This document shows, in pieces, positions 1-63,219 of a stretch of 64,000 bases of DNA; position 1 is the first letter of the stretch, and every line of letters begins with the position of its first letter. The notes beneath the pieces were generated by a model. The model ran no database searches. It was not told the DNA's origin and saw nothing but the letters and a program-made list of their open reading frames with translations. The position numbers and the translations under genes were made by a program. Source of the stretch: Schmidtea polychroa (taxonomy: Eukaryota); assembly GCA_044892525.1 (NCBI GenBank), contig CM097887.1, positions 120,878,397-120,942,396 on the forward strand, in the 5' to 3' direction.

Positions 1-2
1 CC

Positions 3-3367: not shown

Positions 3368-3389
3368 AAGAAAGGGACTAGGAAGATGC

Positions 3390-4184: not shown

Positions 4185-4344
4185 AAAGGAATATAACTGT
4201 ATATAATTGTAAAAAGTAAGTATATCTTATGTATATAACAGTACTATATCTGTATATAAGCGTGGTATCAATATTATACAATAACGGGAATCATAAAATA
4301 AAATTAAATTTAAATAAGAGTTGAAAAGTGTATATAAATTAAGA

Positions 4345-4704: not shown

Positions 4705-4789
4705 ACCAAACCTAGCTTAAAATGTAAATAATTGTAAATAAAATATCGAACCTATATCGATAAGAACTATATGTACATATAATTATAGA

Positions 4790-6178: not shown

Positions 6179-6371
6179 CTAATCGAATAATGTTGTATAT
6201 AATAATCTGTATATATCGGTGTATATAACCAATAAAATATTATATAATAATAGTATGAAAACCCTAAATACGAAAACCCAAAAATGATGCAAAAATTTCC
6301 AAAGAAACAGTAAATAATGAATAAATTCCTTTTTCATAATAAAAAGATTAATCGATGTCTATGATTTAGAG

Positions 6372-7427: not shown

Positions 7428-7593
7428 GGGTGAATAAAAGATGAAAACAAAAATCGGGACGTATATCCCAAAAAAAAAAAATTAAAGTATTGTAAAAGTA
7501 TTTAAGGGACTGTAACCCGAACTATTAAATTTTATATAAATGTATATGTATAAGTCGCACTATAGCGCACCATTAACTGTACATATTACAGAT

Positions 7594-8298
7594 ATGAAAA
7601 TCGAGGAAATAATAGAAATTACGAGCGACGTAGAAGAGGGAGAGATTGAGGCAGAAACAACAGAAACACAAACGTTAAAGGCCGAGTTACGGGAAGAGAA
7701 GTACGAAAACGAGAGACTAGTAAACAAATATATAGAAGACCGAAAAATGATTAAAATACTTAAGAAAGAGTGCGAAGTGCTAGGAGAAATAAAGAGAGAA
7801 GCCGAAGAGAAGAATGAATGGCTGCAAGAACAACGAAAACGAGGAAGAAATTGGGAAAGGATTGCAGAGGAACTATGGCAAGAGAGGGCAAGCTTCAAGG
7901 CAGAAGAAGTAATCCAGGATTATTGGAAAACAGAGGCGAAAGAACGCCAAATAACTATAAATAAATTAAATCAACAATTGGAGGAAAAACAACGAGAAAG
8001 TGAGGAAATGAAGAAATGGATTCGCAAATACCAAGAGATCGAGAGAAAACAACAACAACAACAACGAAACCTTTCGCAGGAAAACGAACAAGATTTCCTA
8101 CAAATCGAACTAAAAAGGAATCTCGACAAAAAACGGGAAGAAATTAGAAGACTGAAAAAGGAGATAAGGCACATGAAAAGGGAGGTCCGTGAAAAGAACA
8201 GACAGTTGGAAATGCTGCCCGAGTTAAGACACAGAGTCATTAAAGCGGAATCCACCTTGATGAGAATCGCCGAAAATAACCCAAATCAGAACCATTAA
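7594..8298 (+). CDS. Element A accessory ORF, coiled-coil protein of unknown family
   Basis: Long charged helical ORF; likely start at ATG 7594 after TTACAG (the track starts at 7540). Confidence 0.7.
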   Translation: MKIEEIIEITSDVEEGEIEAETTETQTLKAELREEKYENERLVNKYIEDRKMIKILKKECEVLGEIKREAEEKNEWLQEQRKRGRNWERIAEELWQERASFKAEEVIQDYWKTEAKERQITINKLNQQLEEKQRESEEMKKWIRKYQEIERKQQQQQRNLSQENEQDFLQIELKRNLDKKREEIRRLKKEIRHMKREVREKNRQLEMLPELRHRVIKAESTLMRIAENNPNQNH

Positions 8299-8353
8299 AT
8301 TAAGGGTCACTAAAACCAATTGTAAATAAACATAATGAATGTATAATAGTATC

Positions 8354-8998
8354 ATGCGAGGCGAGATGATGATAACAATGACGGTATTGATGATTCTGAT
8401 GGAGAACAAACAAGTAAACGCCCAACCGAAAATCGTACGAGATTACCGCAATCAAAATCAAGAACCTAAACAAGAATCCGGCAAATGCACATACCCTATG
8501 ACAGTAAAAACCCATATCATCCAAACCATTCAATCAACCCGATCACACATCAACAACATCCAAACAATGTGTAAAAAGAATCCCATTTGTACAATGATAA
8601 ACAAACAAATTCTCGAACAAATCCAACAATTCGACCAGTTAGAACAACAAATGCAACAAGAGAATTTTGAAAATCTTGTAGAAAAGCCAAAAACACCTCC
8701 CGAAATCAATGACACCCATTATCTCATATATGTGGTGATTGCAGAAACCCTCCTCCTATGTCTACCAATACTCATGAAGATTTACGAAGTTAGAAATAGA
8801 TGTAGAATCTCGACATCAATAAGAGTAATCTCGAACAGAAATCCTCAAGAAGTGCCACTGACAAATCTTAACCCAACCCCATTCCGACCTCGAATCCCGA
8901 GTAACCAACCAATCCAGCCGAATTCTAACAGTCAGACCTATCTCAACATCAATACCCAAACCAACCAACAGCCGCCAACAGAAGCATCAAATGATTAA
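8354..8998 (+). CDS. Element A accessory ORF, predicted type I membrane protein
   Basis: Signal-like MMITMTVLMILMENKQVNAQ, two Cys in a Q-rich ectodomain, TM YLIYVVIAETLLLCLPILM, N/Q/P-rich tail. Confidence 0.65.
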   Translation: MRGEMMITMTVLMILMENKQVNAQPKIVRDYRNQNQEPKQESGKCTYPMTVKTHIIQTIQSTRSHINNIQTMCKKNPICTMINKQILEQIQQFDQLEQQMQQENFENLVEKPKTPPEINDTHYLIYVVIAETLLLCLPILMKIYEVRNRCRISTSIRVISNRNPQEVPLTNLNPTPFRPRIPSNQPIQPNSNSQTYLNINTQTNQQPPTEASND

Positions 8999-9575
8999 TA
9001 GTTCATAAATTCTAACTCAAACATTTGTGTTATCATATGTGGAAACTTTTATTGTATATACAAACTATCACCTTAAGTGATAATTGCTTGGTCTTGATTT
9101 GACCTATATCTTAGAATAAAAATTTTTTGTTTTTGTATAAATGTTTCGATATATCCTTTTTATGAATGCATGAAGTAAGATAACTATGCAATTGCGGGAC
9201 GCAATTTTGATGGGTCCCCGAGTGATTTGTTGGGCTGAGCCGAAAGATAGCTGGGAAATCAGGTTAAACTTAACTAAAGAAAAATAAAAAAAGAAAAATA
9301 AAATAAAAAAAATAAAATAAATAGATTGAGAAATAAAATAGAATAGAATATAAGAAAAGCAATAATTAGAAAATAAGAATTAAAACAAAAAACATAAAAA
9401 TAAGAACAATTAAATAGGACAATAGAATGACGAAAAATAACGTAAAAGGTAGTAGATAATAAGGAAATTAAGGGAAATAAATAAAAACATAATTTTAATA
9501 AAGAAAATAAGAAGAAATAACCCAAAAACAAGGAAAAAAAATTAAATGAATAAAATAAGGCGGTACTCAATTCTG

Positions 9576-9609
9576 ATTGGTCCGCATAAACAAAAAATAC
9601 CTATATAAG
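9576..9609 (+). promoter_or_regulatory. LTR promoter: reverse CCAAT box (ATTGG) and TATA box (TATATAAG)
   Basis: ATTGG at 9576 and TATATAA at 9602. The same arrangement recurs in the LTR-like repeats at about 49,700(-) and 32,190(-). Confidence 0.55.
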
Positions 9610-11652
9610 TAAACAGCAAATTCACTATAGTCAATGTTAAAACCAAACCAATTATAGGTAAGAATAGTATTAACTACATAAATGTTAAAACCAAACCAAT
9701 TATAGGTACTCGACAATCAGGAAAACCAAACCATACTCAGACGACTATTAGGGACAGTTCTATAGACTACTCATTCATATAACCGATTTGATCAGTTTAT
9801 ATTTCGGCTCAGCCTTTGGAACTACAGAATTTTTCAAATAATAAAGTAAGGGTGTATTGCTGTTATGAAATTTGTTTTTGAAGGATTAAATATTTCTATT
9901 ATATTAACCTAACCTTTGAATAAAAACTTCTCCATTCGATTTCAATTTTTTAATGATTTTATAGTTCATAAATTAATTTAAAGGTTAATGATATATAAAT
10001 CTTTATGCTATGTTTTGTCATCGAACGTATTGATTATGCTAAAATTATTTTTTTGAGAAACGTGGAGTTGAGGAGACCCACGCCATGGTATGAGGAGCCT
10101 TCGGGAGCTCAGCCGGCGGGTGTGGATCTCTTCAATCACGCAGCTGACGTGGGCCGGAATGTGGGGGCTTCCTCACGGGTCCGTCGCTGAGGGAAATAAA
10201 ATGCTGCAAGCACGGGTTTAAAGTACAGAGGAATGTATTCCAATATTGAAAAGTAGAGCAAATTTGAATTGAAAATGACTGAGGTGGCTACAAACTCTTA
10301 GTAAACATTACACTCTGAAATTTCATCCGACATCAGAAATCGTATATTGACATCAACTGACATTCCATCTTTTAGCAGAAAAATATTTTTCTATCAAAAC
10401 TTACTGCGTACAAATAGGTTCATCAAATGCGAAATCAGAATATAGAGAGCATAAATAAAGATTTATTCAACAAAAGATTTGTAGCATAAATATAATTGTC
10501 AACAAACGCTGTAATTTTTCCATTGCTTCTGAAAATCCACGATAGCGGCAACGCGAGGTTCTTTCTATAAATGACTCTTTCGACCAAAATAAGAGAGATT
10601 TCTGTTGAATGAACTGCTGGGAATATTTCCCGAAATCACAACATCCAAGTTGAAAAACGGAGGGAACTGCACATCGCGAGAATAAAATTCCAACGTTCAT
10701 GCGCGGTGAGAATTACTCATAGAGAACATATTGAATAACTAAAATAATTCCAACTCGCAGTGTGAGACGATCAGCTGCAACCCGTTGACATAGATAGTAA
10801 GGAAACAGACAAGGCAAATCACACGCATTGCCACATATAAATACACACTGACATATGCCGCATGCATCCTTTTCCCAGCCCGCTGATGACGGTGAGAACA
10901 AAAATTGAAGCACACGCTCATGACATAATCATCTCCAATAGATATGTATCTTTCCGATTCATGTGGCTAATGATTTCTACGAGTGATTCATGCGTCGTCG
11001 GATGACTGTTAATAATCGACTAAATTTTATAGGTTGATTGCACTAGTAGACTCCATAATGAAAAATAAATTAATTGATTTTAGGATGGGGATAGAAATCT
11101 GATCATACGCGACTTATTAAAAATCTAACAGTAGCACGTTGATTAACCGGGTTTTCTGAATTTAATATTCAAATATGAGTTACAATTTGGGGCCATAAAT
11201 TTAAGGATCGTTCACGCGGCCCTGGAGAATTTGTTTTACGTTTTTCAAAAATAAATATCTGTAGTCGAAAAGCTATGTGCAAAAATGAGCATTAATTATT
11301 CAATCATGCAAATATTCCTGATTCTTCCTAAACCATTTCTATGGTAAACTGTAAATCTAATGTCCATTATGTCAATACATTCGCGAGTCATTTTTCACGT
11401 AAATATTTGAAAATCTCAGATAACGGTAGGTAATGAATATTTTGAGTATAACCATAAATTTTTGGCAGAGTATTATCCAAATGTTAATTTCTCTTACACC
11501 CTAAATAGACCTCTAAAAATTCACTGAATGCAATTAACACTATTTCTAACGAAACTATATCATTTATTCTTTCCCCTTTTACTTAATTTTACGAAAATCA
11601 ACAAATGATTGTGTCCATACTAGTTTAGTAGAGATCGCTGATCTTAATTCTT

Positions 11653-12303: not shown

Positions 12304-13004
12304 CGATCGATCTGACCGTAGGAATCCCAGGGCGAATCATATCTGCCGCTGGTGTGACTTGGGAGGAGAATGCCTCCGAGTTTTTTTATCTAGAAGAGCT
12401 ATTGGCGGATGCGGGGTGGGAGAAGTGAGGGCCGCAACACAATACAACCGTGCAGGGCGCGAATGGACAAATATACTATCATGACTCCTTTTCTTCTTAA
12501 TCTATTCTCCACCAAGTGTACTTGTTATGTAGTGTATAATTATCTAATGTATCATGATAATAAAATAAAGAAATTTTTGGTTAAAATTTTGTTGTTGTTT
12601 AAATCTAACTAGCTGTGGTAAAGGTTCAGAGTAGTGTTCGCAAAGCGAGAGTAAATTTTGAGTTCGAGAGGCAGTGGTCAATTTTGTGCCGAACCATGGG
12701 TCAGGGTAGAGAGAGAATCTGATGAGGTAAACAGACGTAAGTCCTTCCAGCGGCCGTCAGAAAGGGAAGTCGAGGCCTCATTAAGGAGTAGTCCTAAGGT
12801 AGGGGCTCACCTGCTTACTGGAGTCTCGCCAGCATAGCACATTTCCAACGTGAAGCAATTCGCGGGTGCTATGTTGGAGGGCAGGTTGTGCGGGGTCCTG
12901 CTCCGGGTGGACACGGGCGTATGTAGCGTACTGATATGGACACGCATCCCCTAGACAAGGACGTAGATTGAGCAGAGTCAACCAAGCACTACCCCAGCAC
13001 AACA

Positions 13005-15992
13005 TTAATATAATAAATTATTTGTAATAAATTATTTTTAGGATTTTTATGAATTTTATGAATTTATTTGGAATTATTTCGATATATTGTAAGTCAGATT
13101 TATGTTTAACTAAAAATAAATAAAGTAATCGCGAAACACAATTCTCATTTCTTCCATAGATACATAGAAATTGGATTCAACGAAATCAAACAACTTATTT
13201 CCTGGTTCTTCTGAAATCAATTGCCTTATTGCTAACTTATACCCTTTGGAAATTTTCACATATTTTTAATACCAGAAAATTATTATTCCAATAGATTTTT
13301 TCGTGATTTCAAGTAATCTTCAAAATTCTTCGTGATTCTCAACATATTCAAAAAAATATTTTTAGTTGAGTTTTGTCATGTTCCGTAATTAATATTTGAA
13401 TTTTTTCCTGTAAATTCAAAGCAATTGAAGAACACCGTAATTAATATTTGAAATTTTATCTTTAATTCGATATTGATTGTATTCCGGTTATGTAGATAAA
13501 TCTGATGACAAAGATAATGGGGTTTCTATATCGATCAGGATCTGGTTCAACAGTGATTTTTCAGCATGTGGAGATTTTTGTTAACTCTATTAAATTTCAG
13601 ATTTTTCCGGAATTCACTTTACTGGTAAGTTCTATTTGTTGTTGAATAAATATTTTAAAAGAATTTGTTATTATGATTTTTTAAGTAAGATTTTTTTAAT
13701 TTTTAAGTAAGTTTTAAAGCTTAAATTCAAATCTCAGATAAAAATGAGATCATTATTCAAGCTCTTAAATATTACTTTTAGTCAACATTAATATTATAAA
13801 TTATTTGTAATAAATTATTTTTAGGATTTTTATGAATTTTTTGAATTTATTTGGAATTATTTCGATATAATGTAATTCAGACTTATTTTTAACTATAAAT
13901 AAATAAAGTAATCGCGAAACACAATTCTCGTATCTTCCAAAGATGCAGAGAAATTGATTGTATTCCTGTTATGCAGATATTTTTGATAACAAAGATAATG
14001 GGATTTCTATATCCATCAGGGTCTGGTTAAATAGTTTTTTTTGAGTATGAGGATATTTTTGTAAACTCTAGTTTATTTCGGATTTTTTCGGAATTCACTT
14101 TACTGGTAAGTTCTATTTGTTGTTGAATAAATATTTTAAAAGTATTTGTTCTAATGATCTTCAAGCAAGTTTTGTTTTAATTTTTAATAAACTTTTAAGG
14201 CTTGAAATCAAATCTCATATAAAAATGAGATCATTATTCAAGCTCTTAAATATTACTTTTAGTCAAAATTAATATTATAAATTATTTGTAATAAATTATT
14301 TTTAGGATTTTTATGAATTTTATGAATTTATTTGGAATTATTTCGATATAATGAAAATCAGATTTATGTTTAACTATAAATAAATAAAGTAATCGCGAAA
14401 AACAATTCTCATTTCCTCCAAAGATTCATAGAAATTGATTTCTGTTATGCAGATATTTTTGATAACAAAGATAATGGGATTTCTATATCGATCAGGGTCT
14501 GGTTAAATAGTTTTTTTTTGAGTATGAGGATATTTGTGTAAACTCTAGTTTATTTCGGATTTTTTCGGAATTCACTTTACTGGTAAGTTCTATTTGTTGT
14601 TGAATAAATATTTTAAAAGTATTTGTTCTAATGATTTTCAAGCAAGTTTTGTTTTAATTTTTAATAAACTTTTAAGGCTTGAAATCAAATCTCATATAAA
14701 AATGAGATCATTATTCAAGCTCTTAAATATTACTTTTAGTCAAAATTAATATTATAAATTATTTGTAATAAATTATTTTTAAGATTTTTATGAATTTTAT
14801 GAATTTATTTGGAATTATTTCGATATAATGAAAATCAGATTTATGTTTAACTATAAATAAATAAAGTAATCGCGAAAAACAATTCTCATTTCCTCTAAAG
14901 ATTCATAGAAATTGATTTCTGTTATGCAGATATTTTTGATAACAAAGATAATGGGATTTCTATATCGATCAGGGTCTGGTTAAATAGTTTTTTTTTGAGT
15001 ATGAGGATATTTTTGTAAACTCTAGTTTATTTCGGATTTTTTCGGAATTCACTTTACCGGTAAGTTCTATTTGTTGTTGAATAAATATTTTAGAAGTATT
15101 TGTTATAATGATTTTCAAATAAGTTTTATTTTAATTTTTAATAAACTTTTAAGGCTTGAATTCAAATCTCAAATAACAATGAGATCATTATTCAAGCTCT
15201 TAAATATTACTTTTAGTCAACAATAATATAATAAATTATTTGTAATAAATTATTTTTAGGATTTTTATGAATTTTATGAATTTATTTGGAATTATTTCGA
15301 TATAATGTAAATCAGATTTATGTTTAACTAAAAATAAATAAAGTAATCGTGAAAAACAATTCTCCTTTCCTCCCAAGATGCATAGAAATTGATTGTATTC
15401 CTGTTATGCAGATATTTTTGATAACAAAGATAATGGGATTTCTTTGTCGATCAGGATCTGGTTTAATAGTGAATAATAGATCATTATCATTTTAAGGATT
15501 TTTATGAATTTTATGAATTTATTTGGAATTATTTCAATATAATGTAAGTCAGATTTATTTTTAACTATAAATAAATATAGTAATGATATTTAATGATATT
15601 TATATAATGATATTTATATAATGATATTCAAATAATGATATTTATATATCGATCAGGGTCTGGTTTAATAGTGATTTTTGAGTATGTGGAGATTTTTGTA
15701 AACTCTAGTTAATTTTGGATTTTTTCGGAATTCACTTTACTGGTAAGTTCTATTTGTTGTTGAATAAATATTTTAGAAGTTGTTGTTAGAAATGATTTTC
15801 AAGTAAGTTTTTTTTTAATTTTTAAGTTACTTTTAAGGCTTGAAATCTGATCTCACGTAATAATGAGATCATTATTCAAGCTCTTAAATATTACTTTTAG
15901 TCAACATTAATATTATAAACTATTTGTAATATATTGTTTTTTGGATTTTTATGAACTTTTCTGAAATTATTTAGAATTATTTCGATATAATT
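13005..15992. repeat. Tandem satellite, about 477-481-bp unit, about 6 copies (first and last irregular)
   Basis: Marker GAGATCATTATTCAAGC recurs at 13746, 14227, 14704, 15181 and 15865. Confidence 0.92.
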
Positions 15993-22147: not shown

Positions 22148-22800
22148 AAAAAAATCACAACTACAAACAATCTCTACAACAAACGAAACAACAAAACACT
22201 CTAAAGCCCAATTCAAAACAGGAGGAAAATTTAAGCTCAGAAAGACACTCCGAACAACTCACACTCGTCTAAAAAAACCACGAAGACATCTGCATCGAAC
22301 AACGAAAAGAAAGATCACATGAGGAAAATTATTCCAAATCCTCGAACATGATAACTGAATAATCAAAAGTAAAATTCCACGTATTTTAAAGTTTTTATGT
22401 TTTGATTTAAAAGCTAAATCTTGTAAAAAACATTTTTTTTCATTTAATTGTCTCGATGTCAATAAATTTTTGTAAATTATGATTTCATTTAAAATAGAGC
22501 ATTTAGGTATAAGATGGGTTGCGACGGCAAGTGACCTGATCGTCTTTTCAATTTTATTTTTTTTTGAAATTAATAAATTGTTTAGCGATAGTAAGATGAA
22601 GTTGGACACAGATATATGCGATGAGGAGTGTAATGTATAGTTATTTTTATTAATATTTTAGTGTTCACTATTAGGAATTGTGAATAGTATGATATAAATT
22701 GCCACCATCTGGGAAATCCAGATTTTCAAAAAAAAACTATATAGCGATAATTTACTATGGTAAATTATCGCTATAGAAAATTTGAAAAAAAAAAATCAAT

Positions 22801-23200
22801 AACCAAATCCAGCAACTAATATTTATTAATTCGGAAGTTGTATTAAATTAAAGAATCAAATCCAGCAACTAATATTTATTAATTCGGAAGTTGTATTAAA
22901 TTAAAGAATCAAATCCAGCAACTAATATTTATTAATTCGGAAATTATACTAAATTAAAGAACCAAATCCGGCAACTAATATTTATTAATTCGTAAGTTAT
23001 ATTAAATTAGAGAACCAAATCCGACAACTAATATTTATTAATTCGGAAGTTATATTAAATTAAAGAACCAAATCCGTCAACTAACATTTATTAATTCTGA
23101 AGTTATATCAAATTAAAGCATCAAATCCGGTAGCTAATGTTTATTAATTTGAAAGTAACACTAAATCAAAGGACGAAATCCCAGTAATCAAGGTTTTTAA
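22801..23200. repeat. 53-bp minisatellite, about 7 copies
   Basis: Unit CAAATCCAGCAACTAATATTTATTAATTCGGAAGTTGTATTAAATTAAAGAAT at 22804, 22857 and onward, decaying rightward. Confidence 0.92.
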
Positions 23201-24510
23201 TTTTGATTAAATAAAAGTACTAGTTCAATATATATTATTGTTTATTATTATTTTTATTTTATTTGTTGTTATCTTATTAGTAAACTCAGCACGCACCCCG
23301 ATTGTCCCATCACATTTTTTATCGGTGACTCTATCGGGTCCTTCAAATCTCTTAACAATAACATAACAAGGAGTATCAGCAATCCGAACGGACAATCAGC
23401 ATCAATTTTACTTAATGATGAGATGATCTGATGACAAGTACCATAGTTTTGGGATTGGGTCTTTGGGTTTTTTAATTTTTTTTATTCTTTTATTTTTATT
23501 TTTAAATGTAATCCTTTCATTAAATCCTATTAAAAAAATTTTTTTAATAATATATTTTTTGACAACGATTGGAATATTTTATCACAAGTTGAGCAAGCAC
23601 TACATATGATGAATATTTCGAATACCCGGGAGTAGTTTATCTACTCCTGGTGGTCTGATGGAAAAGAGAACGAGTGAGGCCGGTAGGCAAAAATGTAGGC
23701 AAAATGTAGCTACAATCCTACAATATTTAAACTGGTAAATATTGAATTGAGATTCTCAAATGTTAATTATCATTTGTCAATAGAAAAATATCAAAATCAG
23801 TTATGCCAATTATTTTTTTGTAGCAGAATTTTATGCGAAAGTAGTAAATTTAACCTGGATTCTTGCCAGATGTAAATAAATATTATCACAAAGAAATTCC
23901 TGGGATTCGTTAAATGTAAAACTAAGTAATTTCCCGTGAATTTTAACCCCGGAAATCCCGGGAGTAACACACTAGATGAGTTAATAAATAATTTGAAAAG
24001 TAACAAAACATCATGGCCGAAAACGTGTGCAAAAAAAGCAATGAAGAAATCCAGCATTATAATGGAAATGGAACTTGTCGTCGTTATGCCTTTTGTAGAA
24101 CTGTGAAAGATACAAAAAGAACTGTATGTGTATACACTGTAAACAGTGTAATATACTTTGTGCGTTTTGTGTTTTGAACCAATTTACAAGAATGGTTATA
24201 AAAAATATAATTAATATTTGTTTAAAATGTTTTGTAATATTTTTTTTTGTAATAAAATTTTGTACAAAATATCTATCTTTTTATTACAAAAAAATTATTT
24301 TTCTAACATGGCGTAAAACAATCCTTAGTCAATATATTAAGCGATGAAATCTTTGATTTTTCTGACGAACTAAGAAATATTTTTATTTTTATTTATCAAA
24401 TTTATTTTATCTAGGCAATAAGTATTTTAAAATATATTAGTTAAAATTCAAATGCCAAAATAATTAATTTGTCCTATAAAGAGTTAATATTTCAATCTAA
24501 TCAGATAGGG

Positions 24511-27002
24511 CATAGATTCCCAACCTGTGGTACGCGTACCACTAGTGGTACGAATTGATAATTTTGGTGGTACGCCAAGAGTTTTGTACTTTTAAAAAAC
24601 TTATATTTTATGCTAAGATAACAAAAAAATTAATCAAGCTATAAATTCGTATATTCTTCTGATAGAACGATACATACCCAACATATTCAGAAAAATATGC
24701 GTAGTTAAAAGAAAAATATTTTTAGTACTAACACGTTCGAACAAATCCAGAAATATACTATTAGGTTTAGTTTTTATTTTAATTTACAAAGCAAGCTGGG
24801 GTGTGATAAATTTGTATCCATCTTATTAAGAAATAGTCCATAAGTAAATTATTATTTTTTAGATTTTTCAAAAAGAAAAAAATATTTCTATCCGGATTCG
24901 AACCAGCCCCCGAAGTTAAGGTCTTACCAATTTTTTTACCCATTGATAATGAAAAATTTTGCCGATAACAATGAAAATTTAAGTTCATATAGCGAAGAAG
25001 AGGAAATCTTTGAAAAGACAAATTGTGTGCAGAAAAAAAAGCATAAAAAGAAAGAGAAAGTAGCCAGGCTCTATAATCCAGAATACTTAAGCTATGGATT
25101 TTCAATTAAATCTGGCTCAGAGTCTTTTCCGATTCCGCAGTGTGTTATCTGTTTCGAAACTTTATCAAATGGATGCATGAAACCATCACTTTTAAAAAGG
25201 CATTTCTCAACTAAGCATCTGGAACTAAAAGATAGGCCTTCGGAATATTTTCAAAGGAGGGTTGCGGAACTGGGCCTTCAAAAAGCTTTTATGACATCTT
25301 TCAGCAATTTAAACACAAATTATGTTCGGGCTTCATATTTAGCGAGCTTACATATAGCAAAATGTGGAAAGGCACATACAATTGGTGAAACTTTATTGCT
25401 GCCTGTTGCTAAAGATATCGTAAGATCAGTATTTGGCGAAAATTCAGCGAAGGAAATCGAAAAAATCTCATTGTCGAACAACACGGTAAAGTCACGAATA
25501 GACGATATGGCAAATCAGATAGAAAAAATTTTAATCTGCAGATTAAAAGACTGTTGGTTTTTTTCTTTGCAGCTTGACGAAAGTACCGACGTTTCAAATT
25601 TGGCTCAATTACTTGTCTATGTTCGATTTGATTTTATGAACGAAATACACGAAGAAATGCTTTTTTGTAAACCTTTGAAAATGAGAACAACATCTAATGA
25701 AATTTTTAACATACTTACTGGTTACTTTGCTGAAAATGAAATAGACTGGAATAAATGTGTAGGGATTTGCACACATGGTGCTCGAGCCATGATTGGAAGC
25801 TTATCTGGGGTAGTTACAAGAATTAAAGAAGTTGCCGTTATGTATTTCTACGCATTGTATAATTCATCGTGAATCTTTGGCGGCAAAAAATATGCCCGAT
25901 CCCTTGATAACAGTTCTAAACGAAGCCGTAAAAAAGATAAATTTCATAAAGTCTCGAGCACTTAATTCCCGATTATTTTCAATTCTATGCAGTGAGATGG
26001 GAAGTGACCATACCACACTGTTGCTGCATACTGAAGTCCGGTGGCTTTCAAAAGGAAAAGTTTTAAGTCGACTATTTGAATTGCGAAATGAGGTAAAAAT
26101 CTTTCTTAAAACTTCCCAAGAGCGAAACGATATTAATTTTACAAATGAAATTTGGTTGTCTAGGCTTGCATACTTATCAGATATTTTTGCTAGGCTGAAT
26201 GAATTAAATTTAAGCTTACAAGGCGCAAACAATTCGGTGTTTGATCTCAACGACAAGATATTAGCATTTAAGAGAAAATTAAGATTAATATTGCAACAGA
26301 TTGAAAAAGGAGATATTTCAATGCTTTTTTCTTTAAGCGCCTTTGTTGATGAAAACAAAATTTCTGTTTCTGAGCAAGTATTGGCCGATATTAATCAACA
26401 TATCATATCCATGTTACAATCCTTTGAAAAGTATTTCCCGGAAAACGTTATTTCTCAAAATTGGATTCGAAATCTCTTCGCATTCCAATTTGATATCCCA
26501 GATAATGTTAATGATAAGGAATCTTTTATTGATCTAATTAGCGATGGCAATTTAAAAATTAAATTCAGTAACTCTAATTTGTGCTCATTTTGGCTTTCCA
26601 TTCGTAAAGAATATCCTGAATTGTCAAGTCAAGCTATTAAATTTTTAATGACATTTAGTACTACGTATTTGTGTGAAACTGGATTTTCAACCATGTCAGC
26701 GATAAAAAATAAATACAGATCATTGCTTAGTATAGAATCTGATCTTCGTCTCAAATTGTCGAAAATTTCACCAGATATTTCCATGTTAGTTAGGAATAAA
26801 CAAGCTCAACCATCTCACTAAATAAAAAAAAATATTATGAGCAAAAAATTTTTAGTTTTTTTGTTTGATTTTTTTTCTTAACCACAAAAGAAATTTTTTA
26901 TATATAAAATGCTAGATTTAAAATAAGCCCCCCAAATTTTTTACGTGGTACTCAAAAATTATTTTTAGTGGTACGAAACCCAAAAAAGGTTGGGAACCGC
27001 TG
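24511..27002 (+). mobile_element. Full-length hAT (Buster/Charlie, SCAND3/ZBED8-like) DNA transposon
   Basis: TIRs CATAGATTCCCAACC and GGTTGGGAACCGCTG; perfect 8-bp TSD AGATAGGG (24503-24510, 27003-27010). Confidence 0.95.
24943..26821 (+). pseudogene. hAT Buster transposase, frameshifted near 25,835; second catalytic Asp replaced by His
   Basis: BED finger PQCVICFE..LKRH, SLQLDESTD, CTHGARAM (canonical CTDGA), THCIIHRE, HTEVRWLS, TYLCETGFS, split over two ORFs. Confidence 0.93.
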
Positions 27003-43767: not shown

Positions 43768-46026
43768 CAGGGGTGCCCACTAATTTTTCTAGGAGAGCTA
43801 CATTCACATCCAAAATGTGTATGCGATCTACTTTTTTAATACTTACATAATATTTACCTACAATGCAATAAATTCATCATAATAAAACAAATATATGTCA
43901 AAATATGGAAAATTAAACTATATAACTATTTATTATAAAAAAATGTAACTTAGGAAATCAAATTTAATGAAAATTATTTTTATATAGAACTTTTCGATGT
44001 TGATGCTCTACATTGGGTTGAATCCACAAGATTTTTGTAGTTTGGGATATAAGTGCTAAGACAACTTCTTAGGCTGGATTCCAAATGGTCATCTGTTAAT
44101 GTTGCTCGGTACTTTGACTTTATAATTTTAATATGTGAAAATGCAGACTCACATAAATAAGTTGAACCAAAAAATGATACTAAATTTTCGAAGCATTTTT
44201 TCAAGTTTGAATATTTATCCTCGGATAGATATTTCCATACATTTGGTTCGGAAGATCTTGATTTAATGAAGATATCATTTTGAAGTGTGATTATTTCCAT
44301 TTCAAGTATAGGGATATCCATTTTAAACAAAGTTGAAATTGAATCTGCAACAATTTCTGGTTTTATTTTTGGATTAAACGGAAAGGACATAAATGCAGCC
44401 ACAATTTCAAGTTTCTTGAAGTCTTGAAAACGTCTCTCGAACTCTAAAACCAAAATTTTGATCTGTTCCGCATATCTCGTAATATTAAAGTTGACATTTT
44501 CAGATTCTTTTAATTGTGACAACATATTTGGAAAATAACTTAAATTTTTGTCTTCTATTTTGGTAATAAGTAAATGAAGCTTTTGTATAAATGCATTGAT
44601 TGAACTTATCATATCGAATATCAATTTATCCTTAACTTGTAAGTCGAGATTTAATTCATTCAGAATTGCAGTAATATCTACTAAAAATGCCAAATCCAAG
44701 AGCCAAACATCATCTTCCAATTGCTTGAACTCATCACCTCTTGCGGCAAGGAACAACTTAATCTCAGAAAGCAAATCTCTAAATCTTTGTAAGAATTTTC
44801 CTCTACTTAGCTACCTTACATCTGAATGCATCAGTAATTCAGCAGGACCTTCGCTATTACTTTCTTCAATTTGTAATTTGAAAAGTCGTCTCTGAAGACT
44901 TCTTGCACGAATCGAGTTAGCAATTTTGAATGTTATTTCCATAATATCTCTCATATTCAGAATGTTAGCACGCAAGGCTTGTTGATGAATAATACCGTGG
45001 TAGGAAAGAAAATCTGGGAATTCACAATCATTCCTACAATATGCTATAAATCCGTTGTGACGCCCTGTCATAGCTGGTGCGCCATCTGTTGTTATTGATA
45101 CAAGCTTACAAATTTGGAGCTGAATGCTGTTGGCATAAGCTTTAAAATTCTGAAATATATCCTCACCTCGAGTTTTACTTTTGAGTGGTATAATTGTTAA
45201 TAATTCTTCCTTCGTAGAAAAATCTTTAAAGACCATTCGAATAAAAATTATAAGCTGCGAAATATCAGCCGCATCAGTTGATTTGTCTGCTTGCAATGAA
45301 AATGCGGTACAATTTCCTATGTCTAACATTAACTGATTTTTTAAATTGGTACTTATTTCTTGGACTCTCCGTGTAACTGTATTACGGGACAATTGCATAT
45401 CAGTAATAGCAGAAATTATATCTGATTTATTTTTAAAATCACAAAATAATGATTCTGCCGCTTCTAAAAATGCTTCTTTTACAATTACTCCATCACTAAA
45501 AGATTTCTTATTTTTTGCCAGAATGTAGCTTACTCGGAAAGATGCAGCTGTAGCTGACTTTGATTTGGATGTTAGCTTCGTAAAAAATGACTGTTGAAAA
45601 GAAATGCATGTTTTCAGTTCCATGATTTTAGACTTACGTAGTTCACTGTCAAGTGGATAATCAACTACAAAATTCTTATGAATTGTCTTGAAATGCCTTT
45701 CCAAATTCCCTCTTTTTGGTAATGAAATAGTAGCTTTACAAATTAAGCAACAACATTTACCTTTAATCATTACAAAAAAGTACTCCTTCTCCATTTCTTC
45801 GCTATAATGATAAGTCTTGGCTTTTTTATTTAGCATTTTTAAACAAAATTAATTTAACAAAAAAGCTTAAGAAAATTTTTCACTTTGTTACACAAAAATT
45901 TAAGCATAAAACAGAAATTTTATATAAAATCTAAATTTATATAAAAAATATTTTTTTTATGAAGATCTACTAAAAAATCCTTCGCGATCTACCGGTAGAT
46001 CGCGATCGACCTTATGGGCACCCCTG
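43768..46026 (-). mobile_element. Full-length hAT (SPIN/GTF2IRD2-like) DNA transposon
   Basis: TIRs CAGGGGTGCCCA and TGGGCACCCCTG; perfect 8-bp TSD TTATACAT (43760-43767, 46027-46034). Confidence 0.95.
43980..45836 (-). pseudogene. hAT transposase with one in-frame premature stop (HSDVR*LSRG, W to TAG)
   Basis: The two track ORFs are in frame; motifs CCLIC..LERH, SLQADKSTD, TTDGAPAM, STYLCESAFS. Confidence 0.93.
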
Positions 46027-55564: not shown

Positions 55565-56611
55565 TGTTGGATGACAGAGGAAGAAGAATCGAAGAGTTTG
55601 AACTAACACATTACTATAGAACGGGCAGCAACAAGTTCAGAATCAATATATACGTAGAGCCCAGATAACTCAAGCCGGACAAATCAAAACAATTATCATT
55701 ACAATTTGATTACTGACTTATGTACATTAGTTATTTATCGGACTATTATTTTATGACAATTATTATTACGGTGTTTTATATTATTTTATCAATGTATCTT
55801 ATTTATTTTATGGATTTTATGTTTGATATTTCATGTAAATAAAACATAGTATGGGGATTAATTAAATAATTAATATCAGTATAGCTACAAAATACATAAT
55901 ATTGAAAATAATAAAAATATAAGTGGACACTTTAAATAATTGAAAAACATATGTTTTAAAATCATAGGAGCATGAGTGGTTCTCGAGTCGTGGGAACATA
56001 ATAATAATTAATAGCAATAATAATAATTTTAGTAATAATAATAATTTTAATTTTTTTATCACAAATTTTTAGCAATCATAAATAATTTTAATATTTTAAT
56101 TTTTAGCAATCATAAATAATTTTAATATTTTATCACATAACAATAATCAATTTTGTAGCAATTATTTAATAAGCATGTATATAAAAATATATTAATTTCT
56201 TAATTATATTTCACTTCTTAAGTACACTTGAAAAATATAACAATTTAATTTCATATACAAAAAAAGTATAAATAGCGAGTCAAAATTCATTTTTTTCGCC
56301 CCAAAATTTTAACCGCGTTAACATACTAAAAAGGTTAATCCTTATTAGTGCTAAAACTCGAACAGACAAACAGAAACGTTCAAAAGCCTACACGCAACAC
56401 AGCAAGAGAATACATAACATTCACACAGTACATACAAGCATATTCGGTTGGATATTTGAAGGATTTTTGGATTTTTGTAACCTAGCAACAAATTCATATT
56501 GGTAAATTTTTCTTTATAATAAAAGTTTTATAAATCACTTTGTCTTTTGATATATTTGTACATATATAAGAACCAGTAAGTTGAGTGTTCCCGAATATCG
56601 AGACCTCAACA
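55565..56611 (+). repeat. 5' LTR of element B
   Basis: No differences from 60693-61739 seen by eye; identical 66-aa shadow ORFs offset by 5,128 nt. Confidence 0.97.
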
Positions 56612-56613
56612 TT

Positions 56614-56631
56614 TGGTGCCGCGAACCGGGA
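56614..56631 (+). promoter_or_regulatory. Primer binding site TGGTGCCGCGAACCGGGA
   Basis: Starts with TGG 2 nt after the LTR; resembles the complement of tRNA-Phe 3' ends (TGGTGCCGAAACCCGGGA), less so tRNA-His. Confidence 0.85.
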
Positions 56632-56850
56632 CTTTAAAATCAATTATTGTTATTCACAATTTGGGGGATAGGAATTGAGATCAGAGGGTATAGTATTTTA
56701 TATTGGGAAAATATATTTATAAAAATAATATCATTGATCAATTTTTAAATAAATAAATTCAGTTTTGAAAATTATTAAATAATTCAAAAAGATAAAATAG
56801 ATAATCAACCCTAAATAGTTTATAATCTCAGAAATAGAATAGTCTATAGG

Positions 56851-59247
56851 ATGAATAATAATAATAATAATTGCATAAAAATTTTACCAGTAGAACCATA
56901 TAGAGGAGAGCCTGAAAAGTGCGACGATTTTTTCACTGAGATCGCTCAGTATACAGAAGCTTGTGGTTGGACACCTGATGAATTAAAAATGAGAATCCCA
57001 TTATACTTAAAAGGTTATGCGTTACAGGCATACAATAACTTAGAATGTAAAGGGAATAATTTTGATCAACTCGTAAGATATCTGAGAGCAGAAATAGTAA
57101 TCGATAGCGATTTACAAAAGATAAATGTTCAAAAATTTAGAAACAGATATCAAGGAACTAGAGAATCAGTTGGTGAATATGTATATACAATTACGGAATT
57201 AGCGAAAAAGGCATTTGGTGCAGGCGAGCACACACCAAAGTTAATTGAGGATCAGTTTTGGAACGGTATACAAAAATATTTATATAAAGCATTAATTATG
57301 GTAGAATATGGTAATTTAAATGAATTAGTTCATAAAGCTAAACGTATAGAAGCAATACAACGAGATAGATTTAGCTCACATGTAGATGCAATGGAAATCC
57401 AAAAACCCATCGAGGTAAAATCTGAGTTGGGTAAGTCAGATGACAACATTCCATGGGAGGAGATGAAGCAACTATATTTAAACTTTGTAAAAAATAGACG
57501 AAGGGTAAGCCCGAGTCCGGATAGAAGTCAATCGCCTGAAAACAGGAGGAGATTTGATAATGTGAGAAACAGAAACTTTGAGAATAGAAACAATAGAAAC
57601 ACTTTTGATAGAGATAATCGATACGAATACAATAGAAATAATTATACGAGAGATAATCGAGTCGATTTTAATAGAAATAATTTGAGAAATAATAAATATG
57701 ATAGAAGTAATAGATATGATAATAGAGATAATACAAATGATTTGAGACGTAGACAGACAAGTCCATATAGACAGAATTCATATAGAGAAAGGCGAGGAAG
57801 CCCTTATAATAATGATGGTAGAGATAAAGTAAATTTTAATGGACAAATCAAATGTTATAATTGCCAAAAATATGGTCACTTAGCTAAATTATGTAACAAT
57901 GCGCGAAGCGAATCGCCTAATAGAGTGAGATTTAAAAATGAACCTGAGATAAAACAAATTAATAGTGCTGAGTTGATATCAGCTAATGAGGAAATAAACA
58001 GTTTGAGAGAGGAATTAAAAGAATTTAAAACTCAATATGGGAGACTTATTGAGAGAAAGTTAGAAATGTCATTAAATGAGTTTCAGTGTTTTACTAATAA
58101 TGTAGATATAGATAATGATGAGTTTCGCGAAGCAAGAGAAGCGGATGAGAAATTTCTTGCAGAAGCAAATAGATGTAAAGAATTAAAAGAGGAATTGAAA
58201 GAGACATTAGAGAAATGGCCTTATGATGACAATGAGACATTGCGTATAATAAATAGAGTTCAAGTCGAAGGAATTGACTTAGAATATTTGAGAAATTTGA
58301 TACCACTAATGGTAAAGAGGCAAAATATGACAAGAGTATTTGAACTAGAAATAGAATTGAAAGAAATGATAAAGTGTTATGGTGAATTTGTGAGAAAAAA
58401 TCAGAAATTACATGAGTCATTGAATATAACTATTGAGGCAAAGGACCTTTCGAGAATACTTATGCGTAGTACAGGGGTACATGTTTGCACAAAAGTGAAT
58501 AAAGTGAAACAGATGGCCAGAGCAAATTGGCCCGAGAAATTGGGAGATAATGATAAAGTGAAACTGTATTTTAACGGCGTAGAAATGATGAATAATGAAT
58601 ATATAATTGACTATGGAGTAAACGTCATTGATAACAATATTATTTCTGCAGTAATAGAAAGGCAAGAAAGTAAAGAAATTGATACACCAACTCCATCAGT
58701 AGAATTGAGTATAAATGACGAAAATGACTATGATAAATTATTTAGATTGTGGGATGCTTCTTCAGGAGGAGCAATGAGGTCACCAACAGTTAGCGATGAA
58801 ATCTTTAAACCTATTGATACTAAATATGATAATTTACATGAGACAATAGAAAAAATTGCGAAACAAGCAAATATGCAGGACGCAGAGACGATGAGACGAG
58901 GTAGAGGAAGGCCTCGAAAATCGGAAATAGTCGAAAAGTCAGATGACAGAAAGGCAGCAGAGCGTCTAAGAGATATTGCAAATAATATGAGACAGGAAGT
59001 CCCAAAAATTCAGGATAATGACAAAGATATAAAGATGATAACAGAGTTAGTTAAAGCAATGAATATGAGACGATTTCCGGAAGCAAAACCATCAGCGTTA
59101 ATAGAAAATATAGTTAAAAAGATTAAATTAATGGAAAAAGAGATTAGAGAATTGAGTGCAGAGGAAGCAAATGAAGAGACAGTGTTAAAGATATTATTTA
59201 CAACAGGAGTTAATCGAGATAAAGTGATTACGCAATGGCATATTTAA
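56851..59247 (+). CDS. Gag (capsid plus CCHC) extended by helical, ubiquitin-like and AT-hook regions
   Basis: PYRGEPEKCDDFF..GWT..IPLYLKGYA capsid; CYNCQKYGHLAKLC at 57853-57894; KLYFNGVEMMNNEYIIDYGV Ubl signature; RRGRGRPRK. Confidence 0.9.
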   Translation: MNNNNNNCIKILPVEPYRGEPEKCDDFFTEIAQYTEACGWTPDELKMRIPLYLKGYALQAYNNLECKGNNFDQLVRYLRAEIVIDSDLQKINVQKFRNRYQGTRESVGEYVYTITELAKKAFGAGEHTPKLIEDQFWNGIQKYLYKALIMVEYGNLNELVHKAKRIEAIQRDRFSSHVDAMEIQKPIEVKSELGKSDDNIPWEEMKQLYLNFVKNRRRVSPSPDRSQSPENRRRFDNVRNRNFENRNNRNTFDRDNRYEYNRNNYTRDNRVDFNRNNLRNNKYDRSNRYDNRDNTNDLRRRQTSPYRQNSYRERRGSPYNNDGRDKVNFNGQIKCYNCQKYGHLAKLCNNARSESPNRVRFKNEPEIKQINSAELISANEEINSLREELKEFKTQYGRLIERKLEMSLNEFQCFTNNVDIDNDEFREAREADEKFLAEANRCKELKEELKETLEKWPYDDNETLRIINRVQVEGIDLEYLRNLIPLMVKRQNMTRVFELEIELKEMIKCYGEFVRKNQKLHESLNITIEAKDLSRILMRSTGVHVCTKVNKVKQMARANWPEKLGDNDKVKLYFNGVEMMNNEYIIDYGVNVIDNNIISAVIERQESKEIDTPTPSVELSINDENDYDKLFRLWDASSGGAMRSPTVSDEIFKPIDTKYDNLHETIEKIAKQANMQDAETMRRGRGRPRKSEIVEKSDDRKAAERLRDIANNMRQEVPKIQDNDKDIKMITELVKAMNMRRFPEAKPSALIENIVKKIKLMEKEIRELSAEEANEETVLKILFTTGVNRDKVITQWHI

Positions 59248-59630
59248 TAGCAAGATACAAGAAACTTTTGCGATTGAATCCAAAGAATCAAATAGAAAAT
59301 ATCGCTAAAATGATATATAATAAATTAAAGATAGATGCTATGCCATGGATAAAATTAAAGGGAGGATGGAAAATACTGTATGATGAGAGTCTAATCGAAA
59401 GTGCTCAGGAAAGCGTAGAAGATAATATTAATGTAGAAATAGATGATACGGAGGAAACAGTAAAAAATCTAGTAAATAAAACAACTATGAAACCAAGTCA
59501 AAAAGAAAGAAAGTCGACAATGTCAATAGTAATTATAGTAATAACATTGTTATTAGATCTGATAAAAGGGCAATCATGTTCGTCGATGTCAAAGAAGTAT
59601 GCGACATCAATAACAATCTCAGACCAGTAG
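59235..59630 (+). CDS. Element B ORF2 (possibly the frameshifted tail of ORF1), ending in a hydrophobic signal-like segment
   Basis: 13-nt overlap with ORF1; MSIVIIVITLLLDLIKGQ. Confidence 0.5.
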   Translation: MAYLIARYKKLLRLNPKNQIENIAKMIYNKLKIDAMPWIKLKGGWKILYDESLIESAQESVEDNINVEIDDTEETVKNLVNKTTMKPSQKERKSTMSIVIIVITLLLDLIKGQSCSSMSKKYATSITISDQ

Positions 59631-60796
59631 AGATATGCATCAGAAATTTTAGAGGAGAAATCGTATACAATAAAAAGGTGACTCCACGCACCAAAATCCA
59701 ACATTATTACCCGGAGAAGACAAGAGCAGACAGAGATTCGATAAGAGGAAACGAAGACGAATACCAAGCGCTGATCGACATACAGAAGCTGCTACTCGGA
59801 AAAATCATTGTGGGATACGAAATAATAAAGAAACTCAAGACGCTGACATTAGATCTGTACAATGTCATGGGAGTCAGAGAGTTAGCTGATGATGTGTTCA
59901 TGTGTTCATTCGTCAAAAATGTAGCACCACACAGAATCAAATTATCGAATCTCGCATACAAAGTAATCGCAACACACCCAAAATGGAAGAAAGACAAAGC
60001 AATCAACAACATCCTCAAAAAACCCGAACCGTTCTCAGCAGAAGATACAACACTAATCGCAAAAGTCATCTACCTTTTGGTCGAGAAGCAGTGGGAAGAA
60101 GTCATAAGGTGGGACATGACAGCATTCCAAAAGGATAATGGCCATCAACTCAGTCCAATAGAAGAAAACAGCGATGAGCCAGAGGAATTTGAGGAAGATA
60201 TATATATCGAACCCTCACAAAGAGAATTGAAATTCAATAAAGATGGGAGCAGATGTACCTTTGAAGATGAACTAATAGACAGCGATGATGACATCATATT
60301 CGTCAAAGAGGACAAAAAACCACAAGCAATCACAATAAAGGAAGAACCTCAGACATCAAGTAGTTACAACTATGCCGACCCACAATGTGATTTAGACTCG
60401 GATGAAGAATATTTCTCACCGAGCGAAGCAATGCAGATAGATGACGAACTAGGACCAGAGCCAAATGTCGAGTTGGAGGAGCCAATGTTCATCATCAAAG
60501 AGGGAAGATCCACTATCTCGGAAAAAGAAATACATCAACACTTCGGTAGACGAATTATTGATGGTGATGTGTTAAAATTGGCATTAAAGAAAGGATTCCA
60601 AAGAGCAACAATGTATATAAACGGTTGCGAAATCGAATTGGTCCTTAGCGATAAAGGTAATGAGGACATTACTTTATCGGCCCTAGGAGGAGTGTTGGAT
60701 GACAGAGGAAGAAGAATCGAAGAGTTTGAACTAACACATTACTATAGAACGGGCAGCAACAAGTTCAGAATCAATATATACGTAGAGCCCAGATAA
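59576..60796 (+). CDS. Element B ORF3: REX4/ISG20-like DEDDh exonuclease fold (catalytically degenerate) with acidic tail; ends inside the 3' LTR
   Basis: MFVDVKEV, VEICIRNFRGEIVYNKKVTP, IQKLLLGKIIVGYEIIKKLKTL, VRELAD, KLSNLAYKVI and PFSAEDTTLIAKVIYLLVEKQWE are colinear with the REX4 motifs. Confidence 0.8.
   Translation: MFVDVKEVCDINNNLRPVEICIRNFRGEIVYNKKVTPRTKIQHYYPEKTRADRDSIRGNEDEYQALIDIQKLLLGKIIVGYEIIKKLKTLTLDLYNVMGVRELADDVFMCSFVKNVAPHRIKLSNLAYKVIATHPKWKKDKAINNILKKPEPFSAEDTTLIAKVIYLLVEKQWEEVIRWDMTAFQKDNGHQLSPIEENSDEPEEFEEDIYIEPSQRELKFNKDGSRCTFEDELIDSDDDIIFVKEDKKPQAITIKEEPQTSSSYNYADPQCDLDSDEEYFSPSEAMQIDDELGPEPNVELEEPMFIIKEGRSTISEKEIHQHFGRRIIDGDVLKLALKKGFQRATMYINGCEIELVLSDKGNEDITLSALGGVLDDRGRRIEEFELTHYYRTGSNKFRINIYVEPR
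60685..60692 (+). promoter_or_regulatory. Polypurine tract AGGAGGAG
   Basis: Directly abuts the TG of the 3' LTR; short, and lies inside ORF3 (LGGV). Confidence 0.7.
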
Positions 60797-61739
60797 CTCA
60801 AGCCGGACAAATCAAAACAATTATCATTACAATTTGATTACTGACTTATGTACATTAGTTATTTATCGGACTATTATTTTATGACAATTATTATTACGGT
60901 GTTTTATATTATTTTATCAATGTATCTTATTTATTTTATGGATTTTATGTTTGATATTTCATGTAAATAAAACATAGTATGGGGATTAATTAAATAATTA
61001 ATATCAGTATAGCTACAAAATACATAATATTGAAAATAATAAAAATATAAGTGGACACTTTAAATAATTGAAAAACATATGTTTTAAAATCATAGGAGCA
61101 TGAGTGGTTCTCGAGTCGTGGGAACATAATAATAATTAATAGCAATAATAATAATTTTAGTAATAATAATAATTTTAATTTTTTTATCACAAATTTTTAG
61201 CAATCATAAATAATTTTAATATTTTAATTTTTAGCAATCATAAATAATTTTAATATTTTATCACATAACAATAATCAATTTTGTAGCAATTATTTAATAA
61301 GCATGTATATAAAAATATATTAATTTCTTAATTATATTTCACTTCTTAAGTACACTTGAAAAATATAACAATTTAATTTCATATACAAAAAAAGTATAAA
61401 TAGCGAGTCAAAATTCATTTTTTTCGCCCCAAAATTTTAACCGCGTTAACATACTAAAAAGGTTAATCCTTATTAGTGCTAAAACTCGAACAGACAAACA
61501 GAAACGTTCAAAAGCCTACACGCAACACAGCAAGAGAATACATAACATTCACACAGTACATACAAGCATATTCGGTTGGATATTTGAAGGATTTTTGGAT
61601 TTTTGTAACCTAGCAACAAATTCATATTGGTAAATTTTTCTTTATAATAAAAGTTTTATAAATCACTTTGTCTTTTGATATATTTGTACATATATAAGAA
61701 CCAGTAAGTTGAGTGTTCCCGAATATCGAGACCTCAACA
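60693..61739 (+). repeat. 3' LTR of element B
   Basis: See the 5' LTR; followed by the GTTC TSD. Confidence 0.97.
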
Positions 61740-62236: not shown

Positions 62237-62465
62237 CAAGAGAAGTTAATTAGATTTATTGATTGTTTTTGATGAGTTATGTTTCGATTTAAGGGAGTCG
62301 AATAATTTGGTTTTCTAAGGATTTTTCGGATAGAAGATGGCTGCTTTTAATGAAGAAATGGAAGTGGGAAATGCTACCAACGAAACTGATGGTTCCTTTT
62401 TTATGACCCCAAGAGATCCTGATAATGTTAATGGTGTTTTTGGCCAACTAATATTAAATTTATTT

Positions 62466-62850
62466 TGTGGATGGATTTCCGTTGGTATTCGATGCAATAA
62501 TTGTGATGAAGTAGTTACATAAAGAAAGGTTACAGATAAAATGATTGAGAAGAGTTCAGCTACAAGGTTGTTTAATATTACTGAAAGTCCTGGAGGGGTC
62601 ATGACTGGTATGATCCCTGATTATCGATCTCAAGTATGTCGTGCACAAATGGAAGCAGCTCGATTTAGATATAAACATGGATATGAAATGCCTTGTGACA
62701 TAATATGTCGTTCTATTGCGGATATTAATCAGCTTTATTCCCAATCAACTGAGATGCGACCATTAGGTTGTTCAATGATGGCATTATCTTATGGTATTGA
62801 AATGGACAAACTGTTGTTATTCAAAACTGGCTCTGTGGATGGAAATAAAA
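62466..62850 (+). pseudogene. PSMA6: Proteasome subunit alpha type-6 fragment with an in-frame stop
   Basis: SVGIRCNNCDEVVT*RKVTDKM..RLFNITESPGGVMTGMIPDYRSQV..YKHGYEMPCDIICRSIADINQLYSQSTEMRPLGCSM matches alpha-1/PSMA6; both termini are missing. Confidence 0.88.
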
Positions 62851-63219
62851 TTATTATTCGTTATCTTGAATTTAAACAATCTATAAATTTAACTTTAGAA
62901 ATACATTGAAATATTTTGATTTTTATGGCAGTAGTGATTTTTATATTTTTATGCAGAAACTTGAGTGGTGCACTATTCAAGGGCAAAGGGAGACTTACCT
63001 TAGGAACTAGGCATTTTGTCAAGACGATTCAGTGATAGCTCGTAGGCCCTTTATGGGTCAAGTCGCTTAGGTTTTCATTATGAATTATAAATTACTAAGA
63101 TTGAATTTTTATTAGTAAAGACAAAGAAGGTAGTTTTATTTGAGAACATATAAGCAGAAATGTATCGTTGTAAATGTAATCTTGCCAGGCGTATGGTGTG
63201 TTTTAAATCTTTCTAGAAG

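Follow-up and report, generated by a model that had tools for sequence, protein, structure and literature searches.

Giant Gypsy elements of planarians have a published layout, that of Burro/GYPSM1 (PMC6431247), and flatworms also harbor errantiviruses of the GAG-ENV-POL order with an HSV/gB-type envelope protein (PMC13524379). In bdelloid rotifers, the Juno and Vesta LTR elements and the Terminons carry a DEDDy exonuclease as ORF3 (PMC5408684); among viruses, arenavirus NP and the ExoN of nidovirus nsp14 are captured DEDD exonucleases, the arenavirus one suppressing innate sensing (PMC7968707). Dead DEDD domains that bind RNA have been described in Maelstrom and EXD1 (PMC5408684) and in PML PXL (PMC13659232).

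How does the present locus compare? The window, i.e., the whole stretch of 64,000 nucleotides that was analyzed (Schmidtea polychroa, contig CM097887.1, positions 120,878,397 to 120,942,396), holds a shortened copy of an LTR element with the following parts:

55565..56611, + strand: 5' LTR of 1,047 bp, TG...CA, with a 4-bp target-site duplication, GTTC, read directly at the flanks
56614..56631, + strand: sequence resembling a primer-binding site, directly 3' of the LTR and starting with TGGTGCC (judged from its sequence)
56815..59247, + strand: first 810 aa of ORF1, gag with a zinc knuckle (zf-CCHC, E 5e-4)
59223..59570, + strand: continuation of ORF1 in another frame, with a Bcl-2-like segment (E 0.014 for Bcl-2, short of the cut-off) and the extreme beginning of env
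59565..59570, no strand: junction of an internal deletion of ~7.2 kb, with 6 nt of exact microhomology
59576..60115, + strand: ISG20/REX4-type DEDDh pseudo-exonuclease domain, the middle of a longer two-domain ORF2
60116..60796, + strand: terminal part of ORF2, acidic and of low complexity, which extends into the 3' LTR
60693..61739, + strand: 3' LTR, preceded by a purine-rich tract and identical to the 5' LTR over all 1,047 bp

This copy is a young, private, non-autonomous deletion derivative. Its ORF1 frame breaks near 59232 (~codon 818), tblastn placing aa 1-818 in one frame and 819-931 in another, and the ~7.2-kb deletion has removed env, PR, RT, RH, IN and the N-terminal domain of ORF2. 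The deletion ends just before the exonuclease domain, and its junction is spanned by only one of the 40 scored matches, namely the window itself; the full ORF2 protein is probably not made by this copy. Longer copies elsewhere in the genome measure ~13.4 kb and encode an ORF1 of 3,053 aa and an ORF2 of 722 codons, the latter being the last ORF before the 3' LTR. Their ORF1 comprises gag, the zinc knuckle, a Bcl-2-like segment (E 1e-4, under the cut-off), a Monjiviricetes-type fusion protein (E 3e-87), PR, RT, RH and IN; env, deleted together with pol in the window copy, thus lies in frame between gag and pol, with the Bcl-2-like motif upstream. Neither ORF of the ~13.4-kb copies contains a BIR, MATH or ankyrin domain, and their size is not giant. 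Judged by its domain layout, on which the Burro likeness rests since the RT tree covers loci of this genome only, the element is a Burro-like Gypsy of gag-Bcl2-env-pol order with a 3' accessory ORF.

At the C-terminus of L035 ORF1 (L004:3-695), the integrase is followed by a stretch rich in Thr and by a hydrophobic segment of membrane-like character; this region gives a fibronectin-like impression and has no Pfam match. In L032, pol is interrupted at 1954-6683 by a group of ORFs lying on both strands, including one with a P-loop ATPase-like motif; by its likeness, we take this block to be a possible Polinton-type insertion. Elsewhere in the window, positions 1-10815 hold the end of a different LTR retroelement, whose ORFs are of the integrase, ankyrin-repeat, TRAF (RING and MATH) and coiled-coil kinds, and within it a 1.59-kb repeat (9228-10815) that matches L102:5376-6959 at 99.6%, pol starting just after it and gag appearing to be absent; no exonuclease ORF was found in this element, be it at window 1-10815 or at L102. 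Two broken ORF pairs (24844-26821 and 43980-45848) look by eye like hAT-type DNA transposases, tandem arrays of ~477 bp and 53 bp occupy 13000-15970 and 22739-23255, respectively, and a degraded proteasome-subunit sequence with stops (62315-62909; Pfam E 2e-17) resembles a pseudogene. The window contains no tRNA gene.

Is the domain at 59576..60115 an exonuclease by descent? The open frame runs from 59480 to 60796 on the + strand, with an ATG at 59576, and the strings DVK, GYEIIKK and PFSAED, quoted in the preliminary description as remnants of ExoI, ExoII and ExoIII, are indeed read at 59585, 59813 and 60029. Pfam returned no match for the single ORF and no family match for the tail at 60116..60796, word-indexed protein searches with ORF2 and with an intact-clade domain found nothing at the cut-offs used, and the single sequence has only weak matches in the PDB (ISG20L2, E 0.059; ISG20, E 0.09). 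A profile of 8 window-clade copies matched ISG20L2 (5.6e-6) and ISG20 (2e-4) and nothing else; in the ESM Atlas, REX4-like/RNase_T clusters come out on top (0.93). AlphaFold reached a pLDDT of 69 with the exonuclease domain alone; a two-domain model of a longer copy, built with 53 aligned relatives (pLDDT 89, pTM 0.88), was used instead, and its best fold match is ISG20 (Foldseek E 4e-8; Z 18.2, with 163 of 168 residues superposed at an rmsd of 2.7). The window-type domain has the DnaQ-like fold, with ExoI, ExoII and ExoIII in order and a basic insert of 13 residues before ExoIII. DEDDh homology is established: profile, ESM Atlas and fold search agree, as the first reading of a REX4/ISG20 domain would have it. 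What that reading missed is that the domain belongs to a longer, two-domain ORF, the N-terminal part of which is deleted here.

The active site is another matter. In the window, the catalytic positions are D4 (59585), K6 (59591), K86 (59831), F153 (60032) and T158 (60047); the site thus reads D-K-K-F-T, with one of five catalytic residues kept and three acids and the His replaced. ExoI and ExoII align without gaps, retaining D4 and placing K6 and K86 at the second and third acidic positions, and ExoIII, anchored on the last helix, has F153 in the place of the catalytic His, with T158 where the last Asp would be. The earlier register, which equated PFSAED with HSxxED, is off by one: over 150 pairs, the mean BLOSUM score is 32.0 for the present register vs. 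-0.5 for the earlier one, HHalign arrives at the same register as ours (probability 99.6), and the D of “AED” is not catalytic and varies among 52 loci (D 36, Q 7, H 7, Y 1, stop 1). The loss of “two acidic residues and the His” therefore stands for the His and has to be raised to three for the acids.

The same site recurs throughout the family. A search of the genome yielded 1,085 candidates, of which 150, 56-100% identical, were scored; 52 loci, chosen by similarity to the query, were read (the 30 best, 20 from lower ranks and 2 more), a sample that rarer states could escape. Lys at position 86 and Phe at position 153, in place of the general-base His of ExoIII, are found in 52 of 52 loci and are invariant across subfamilies. 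Position 4 is D in 45, E in 5, V in 1 and uncovered in 1; position 6 is K in 45, R in 6 and uncovered in 1; position 158 is T in 50, A in 1 and M in 1. An acid occurs at positions 6, 86 or 158 in none of the 52, D-K-K-T standing where the metal ligands D-E-D-D would be, and two metal-binding acids have become Lys/Arg in all subfamilies. The “pseudo-nuclease” of the preliminary description, with four of five catalytic residues replaced, is thus common to every locus examined, and the decay of this one copy does not account for it. Neither outcome named beforehand as fatal to it has come about: DEDDh profiles do match, and the catalytic set is absent from all 52 loci.

If the site is dead, is the domain still needed? 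Between subfamilies, synonymous sites are saturated and dN is 0.14-0.35; the lysine codons at the catalytic positions include both AAA and AAG. A codon model puts omega at 0.061 in the dead clade (14 stop-free sequences out of 16 tried) and at 0.083 in the intact clade (17 sequences). Among five subfamily representatives, 72 of the 180 positions of the exonuclease domain are invariant, 17 positions stay basic and 12 stay acidic; the dead clade is modestly more basic, with 27-31 K+R in 173 residues vs. 19-26 in ~160 in the intact clade. Frames are open in most scored copies. Because the same replacements are found despite saturated synonymous sites, with an omega of 0.06, the family-wide pattern is that of selection on a dead enzyme, not of decay, and we regard a selected pseudo-nuclease as highly probable.

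The genome also contains what look like working versions. A Pfam RNase_T search with follow-ups identified intact sisters in other LTR families that have the same env-pol layout and RTs ~50% identical to those of the window clade. Their ORF2 has D-E-E-H-D in 15 of 15 aligned rows and matches ISG20L2 with an E of 9.6e-12; their ExoIII reads HSxxED, and the best matches are ISG20L2 and ISG20, which places them outside the DEDDy subgroup (RNase D-like, with a Tyr in ExoIII). In this one genome, both the intact and the dead clade reach high copy numbers. An intact-clade copy outside the 15-row alignment, L066, has a lone E-to-K change; such a change can therefore arise in a single copy.

In dead and intact clades alike, the exonuclease domain has a partner. 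At its N-terminus, ORF2 has a second domain, which the window copy lacks: a double-stranded β-helix of the prolyl-hydroxylase/AlkB type (residues 19-179 vs. prolyl 4-hydroxylase: Z 10.9, rmsd 3.5 over 153 residues), and AlphaFold predicts this oxygenase-like domain to be packed on the ISG20-like one. In an alignment of 53 rows (not in coordinates), the HxD/E...H metal triad is not conserved, which rules out an active AlkB-type domain; only one His and one Glu are conserved, P60, H115 and E170 being kept in 81-92% of the rows.

Where did the exonuclease come from? An exhaustive profile search retrieved 1,875 proteins at E <= 0.001, 150 of which were listed; 8 short rows were dropped before the tree was built. 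Of the matches listed, 59 cluster with the element proteins and are set off from the cellular REX4-like ones (FastTree 0.998), although one cellular-looking row falls beside the element clade in the midpoint-rooted tree. The proposed capture of a REX4/ISG20-type domain is supported by this separate element clade, in a phylogeny from which the genome's own REX4-like gene, L144, was left out. This host-type gene, apparently split, is 46-48% identical to the cellular query, as compared with only 22-28% for the element ORFs; since it is far closer to the query than they are, the capture is old, and recent capture from this gene is rejected. Among the 59 element-type clusters listed, the site is degenerate in 19; the other 40 appear intact or are truncated. 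The distant clusters are metagenome-derived, the 30 looked up coming from ENA, JGI and Logan assemblies under uninformative names. Outside this genome, a single-protein query revealed retroelement context at 4 loci in one assembly, with TRAF and RING ORFs adjoining. On the metagenome contigs L123-L126, an intact D-E-E-H-D ORF closes a cassette of RING, TRAF and coiled-coil ORFs, and on L123 a gag ORF follows this cassette. Several listed proteins (P0019, P0045, P0053, P0147, P0049, P0054 and P0058) contain two to four REX4-like domains in tandem, several of them with degenerate sites.

The preliminary description took C-rich third codon positions as a sign of separate origin. The richness itself is real (53 of 180 codons vs. 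62 of 798 in gag, Fisher p 2e-13) but the conclusion does not hold: third-position C/(C+T) is 0.68 in the exonuclease domain of the window subfamily and 0.65 in its N-terminal domain, as compared with 0.32 for a second dead subfamily and a range of 0.31-0.39 for the intact clade. Because the bias is absent from these sisters, it is a lineage trait, that of one subfamily's whole ORF2, and cannot mark a recent capture. The separate history is instead shown by phylogeny and cassette swapping, in which ORF2 travels with the LTR from one near-identical pol backbone to another. Between two subfamilies (L035/L036 vs. L038/L039), for example, ORF1 is 94-99% identical, ORF2 59-76% and the LTR 53-67%, as expected of a swappable ORF2 + LTR cassette; in the intact clade, L089 and L085 show the same break, from 96-100% identity to 64-73%. 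Has the enzyme died more than once? Mapped on a tree of both domains (53 rows), the dead state takes 4 changes, but no more than 1 is demanded by strongly supported branches, and the tree has long branches that join. Repeated inactivation is thus likely on this tree.

How ORF2 might be expressed can be gleaned from a few signals. A pyrimidine-rich AG lies directly before the likely ORF2 start codon in L004 (near 847), L104, L109 and L123-L126, and a donor-like GTAAGT is present near the LTR end at window position 56576; together, these acceptor- and donor-like sites suggest a spliced ORF2 message. In some subfamilies, no pyrimidine-rich AG is seen before the candidate ORF2 starts. Contigs of four runs across pol and the ORF2 start gave no usable splice joint; contigs are unable to show expression.

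What could a dead exonuclease do for a retroelement? In the scenario that we favor, an ancestor would have captured a REX4/ISG20L2-type exonuclease long ago, fused to the β-helix domain and used on RNA 3' ends. In the window lineage, lysines would then have taken the place of the metals, so that cleavage ceased and a basic surface remained; the dead protein could bind the element's own RNA, or small RNAs aimed at the element, and the bound RNA would be shielded or escorted against host 3'-5' decay or silencing. We give a probability of about 0.5 to the core of this scenario, i.e., that the exonuclease-fold half of the accessory protein is a non-cutting RNA-binding module kept by selection. Maelstrom, EXD1 and PML PXL would be precedents, by analogy, for RNA binding by dead DEDD domains. 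A broader version is speculative: ORF2 may be an ancient two-domain accessory gene of invertebrate enveloped Gypsy elements, an active RNA exonuclease in one form. On more than one occasion it would have turned into a dead clamp on RNA, with which the transposon would suppress RNA decay or silencing by small RNAs, and it would be swapped with the LTR as a cassette.

The RNA-binding reading must be weighed against explanations in which RNA plays no part. The loop remodeled in the dead clade is presumably the substrate-contacting loop of ISG20; the region reads YYPEKT in the dead clade and is invariant. With the substrate loop remodeled, the canonical mode of 3'-end binding may no longer operate, and a protein could be what the conserved surface contacts. 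The module might then be a protein decoy that engages a silencing factor or one of the host proteins with which REX4/ISG20L2-type nucleases associate, or that poisons the active exonuclease of competing sister elements: intact and dead clades are both at high copy in one genome, and such elements are known to carry host-modulating cargo, e.g., Bcl-2, TRAF and RING ORFs (PMC6431247, in the part available). We consider this decoy possible rather than probable, since the K/R charge reversal at both metal positions and the 17 conserved basic positions fit a polyanion ligand. It is also unlikely that the dead domain is kept only as a scaffold, for folding with a functional β-helix domain. The model does pack both domains into a single unit (pTM 0.88), and P60, H115 and E170 of the N-domain persist whether the exonuclease is dead or intact; however, invariance extends in the five subfamilies to exposed basic residues and the insert of the exonuclease domain, and the N-domain lacks the HxD...H triad.

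The remaining alternatives concern the death of the enzyme itself. A rewired nuclease, metal-independent or using one metal, with lysines in place of metal ions, would explain why the first acid is D or E in 50 of 52 loci, why K/R is fixed at two other metal positions and why constraint equals that of the intact clade. With the general-base His turned into Phe (52 of 52) and the last Asp into Thr (50 of 52), such an enzyme is improbable; we know of no metal-independent or one-metal DEDD enzyme with lysines for metals. Least credible is the neutral decay of a once-active captured gene: the window copy, which carries a deletion and a frameshift outside this domain, invites this explanation, which may apply to that copy's context, but for the family it is refuted by the same replacements in saturated subfamilies, the omega of 0.06 and the open frames in most scored copies.

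Why would this matter? Among the accessory genes that animal retrotransposons carry, few are known to help evade the RNA defenses of the host. Here, active-looking and dead versions occur in hundreds of young copies in one genome and under equal constraint, offering a ready paired comparison that can inform both the use of a captured exonuclease to a retroelement and the route from enzyme to pseudo-enzyme.

Set beside the known systems, the element shares with Burro and the flatworm errantiviruses a polyprotein that strings together gag, a Bcl-2-like segment, a class III fusion protein, PR, RT, RH and IN, as well as accessory ORFs; Burro exceeds 30 kb, whereas the window family measures ~13.4 kb and has a 3' β-helix-DEDDh ORF (as far as the available parts of PMC6431247 and PMC13524379 go). 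The available part of PMC6431247 names no exonuclease for Burro, the words “exonuclease” and “DEDD” have 0 occurrences in the main text of PMC13524379, and the literature searched, to which Repbase and supplements did not belong, contains no DEDDh or β-helix-DEDDh accessory ORF of Burro-like elements; the cargo list of the Burro group is thereby extended. With ORF3 of the rotifer elements, it has in common a DEDD exonuclease as an extra 3' ORF of an LTR element and, in the intact sister clade, the change of DEDD to DEED; rotifer ORF3 is an RNase D-like DEDDy enzyme with its residues intact, whereas here an ISG20/REX4-type DEDDh domain is joined to a β-helix and includes dead lineages (PMC5408684, available part). 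Exonuclease ORFs in LTR elements are thus already known, as intact DEDDy enzymes of rotifers; it is the DEDDh pseudo-nuclease form that is unreported in the literature searched, part of it seen in excerpt. Cellular ISG20, ISG20L2 and REXO4 (PDB 1wlj, 7yw5) have the same fold and motif order; the element domain, only 17-19% identical to them, differs in four of five catalytic residues, in its basic 13-residue insert and in forming its own clade. Arenavirus NP and nidovirus ExoN are catalytically active and were captured independently, which makes them, on the portion of PMC7968707 available, an analogy for the intact sister clade only. The closest parallels to the dead clade are Maelstrom, EXD1, Exuperantia and PML PXL, which share an exonuclease fold without catalytic residues and are reported to bind RNA (Maelstrom and EXD1 in PMC5408684, PML PXL in PMC13659232); these are host proteins from other DEDD branches, whereas the pseudo-enzyme described here resides on a mobile element.
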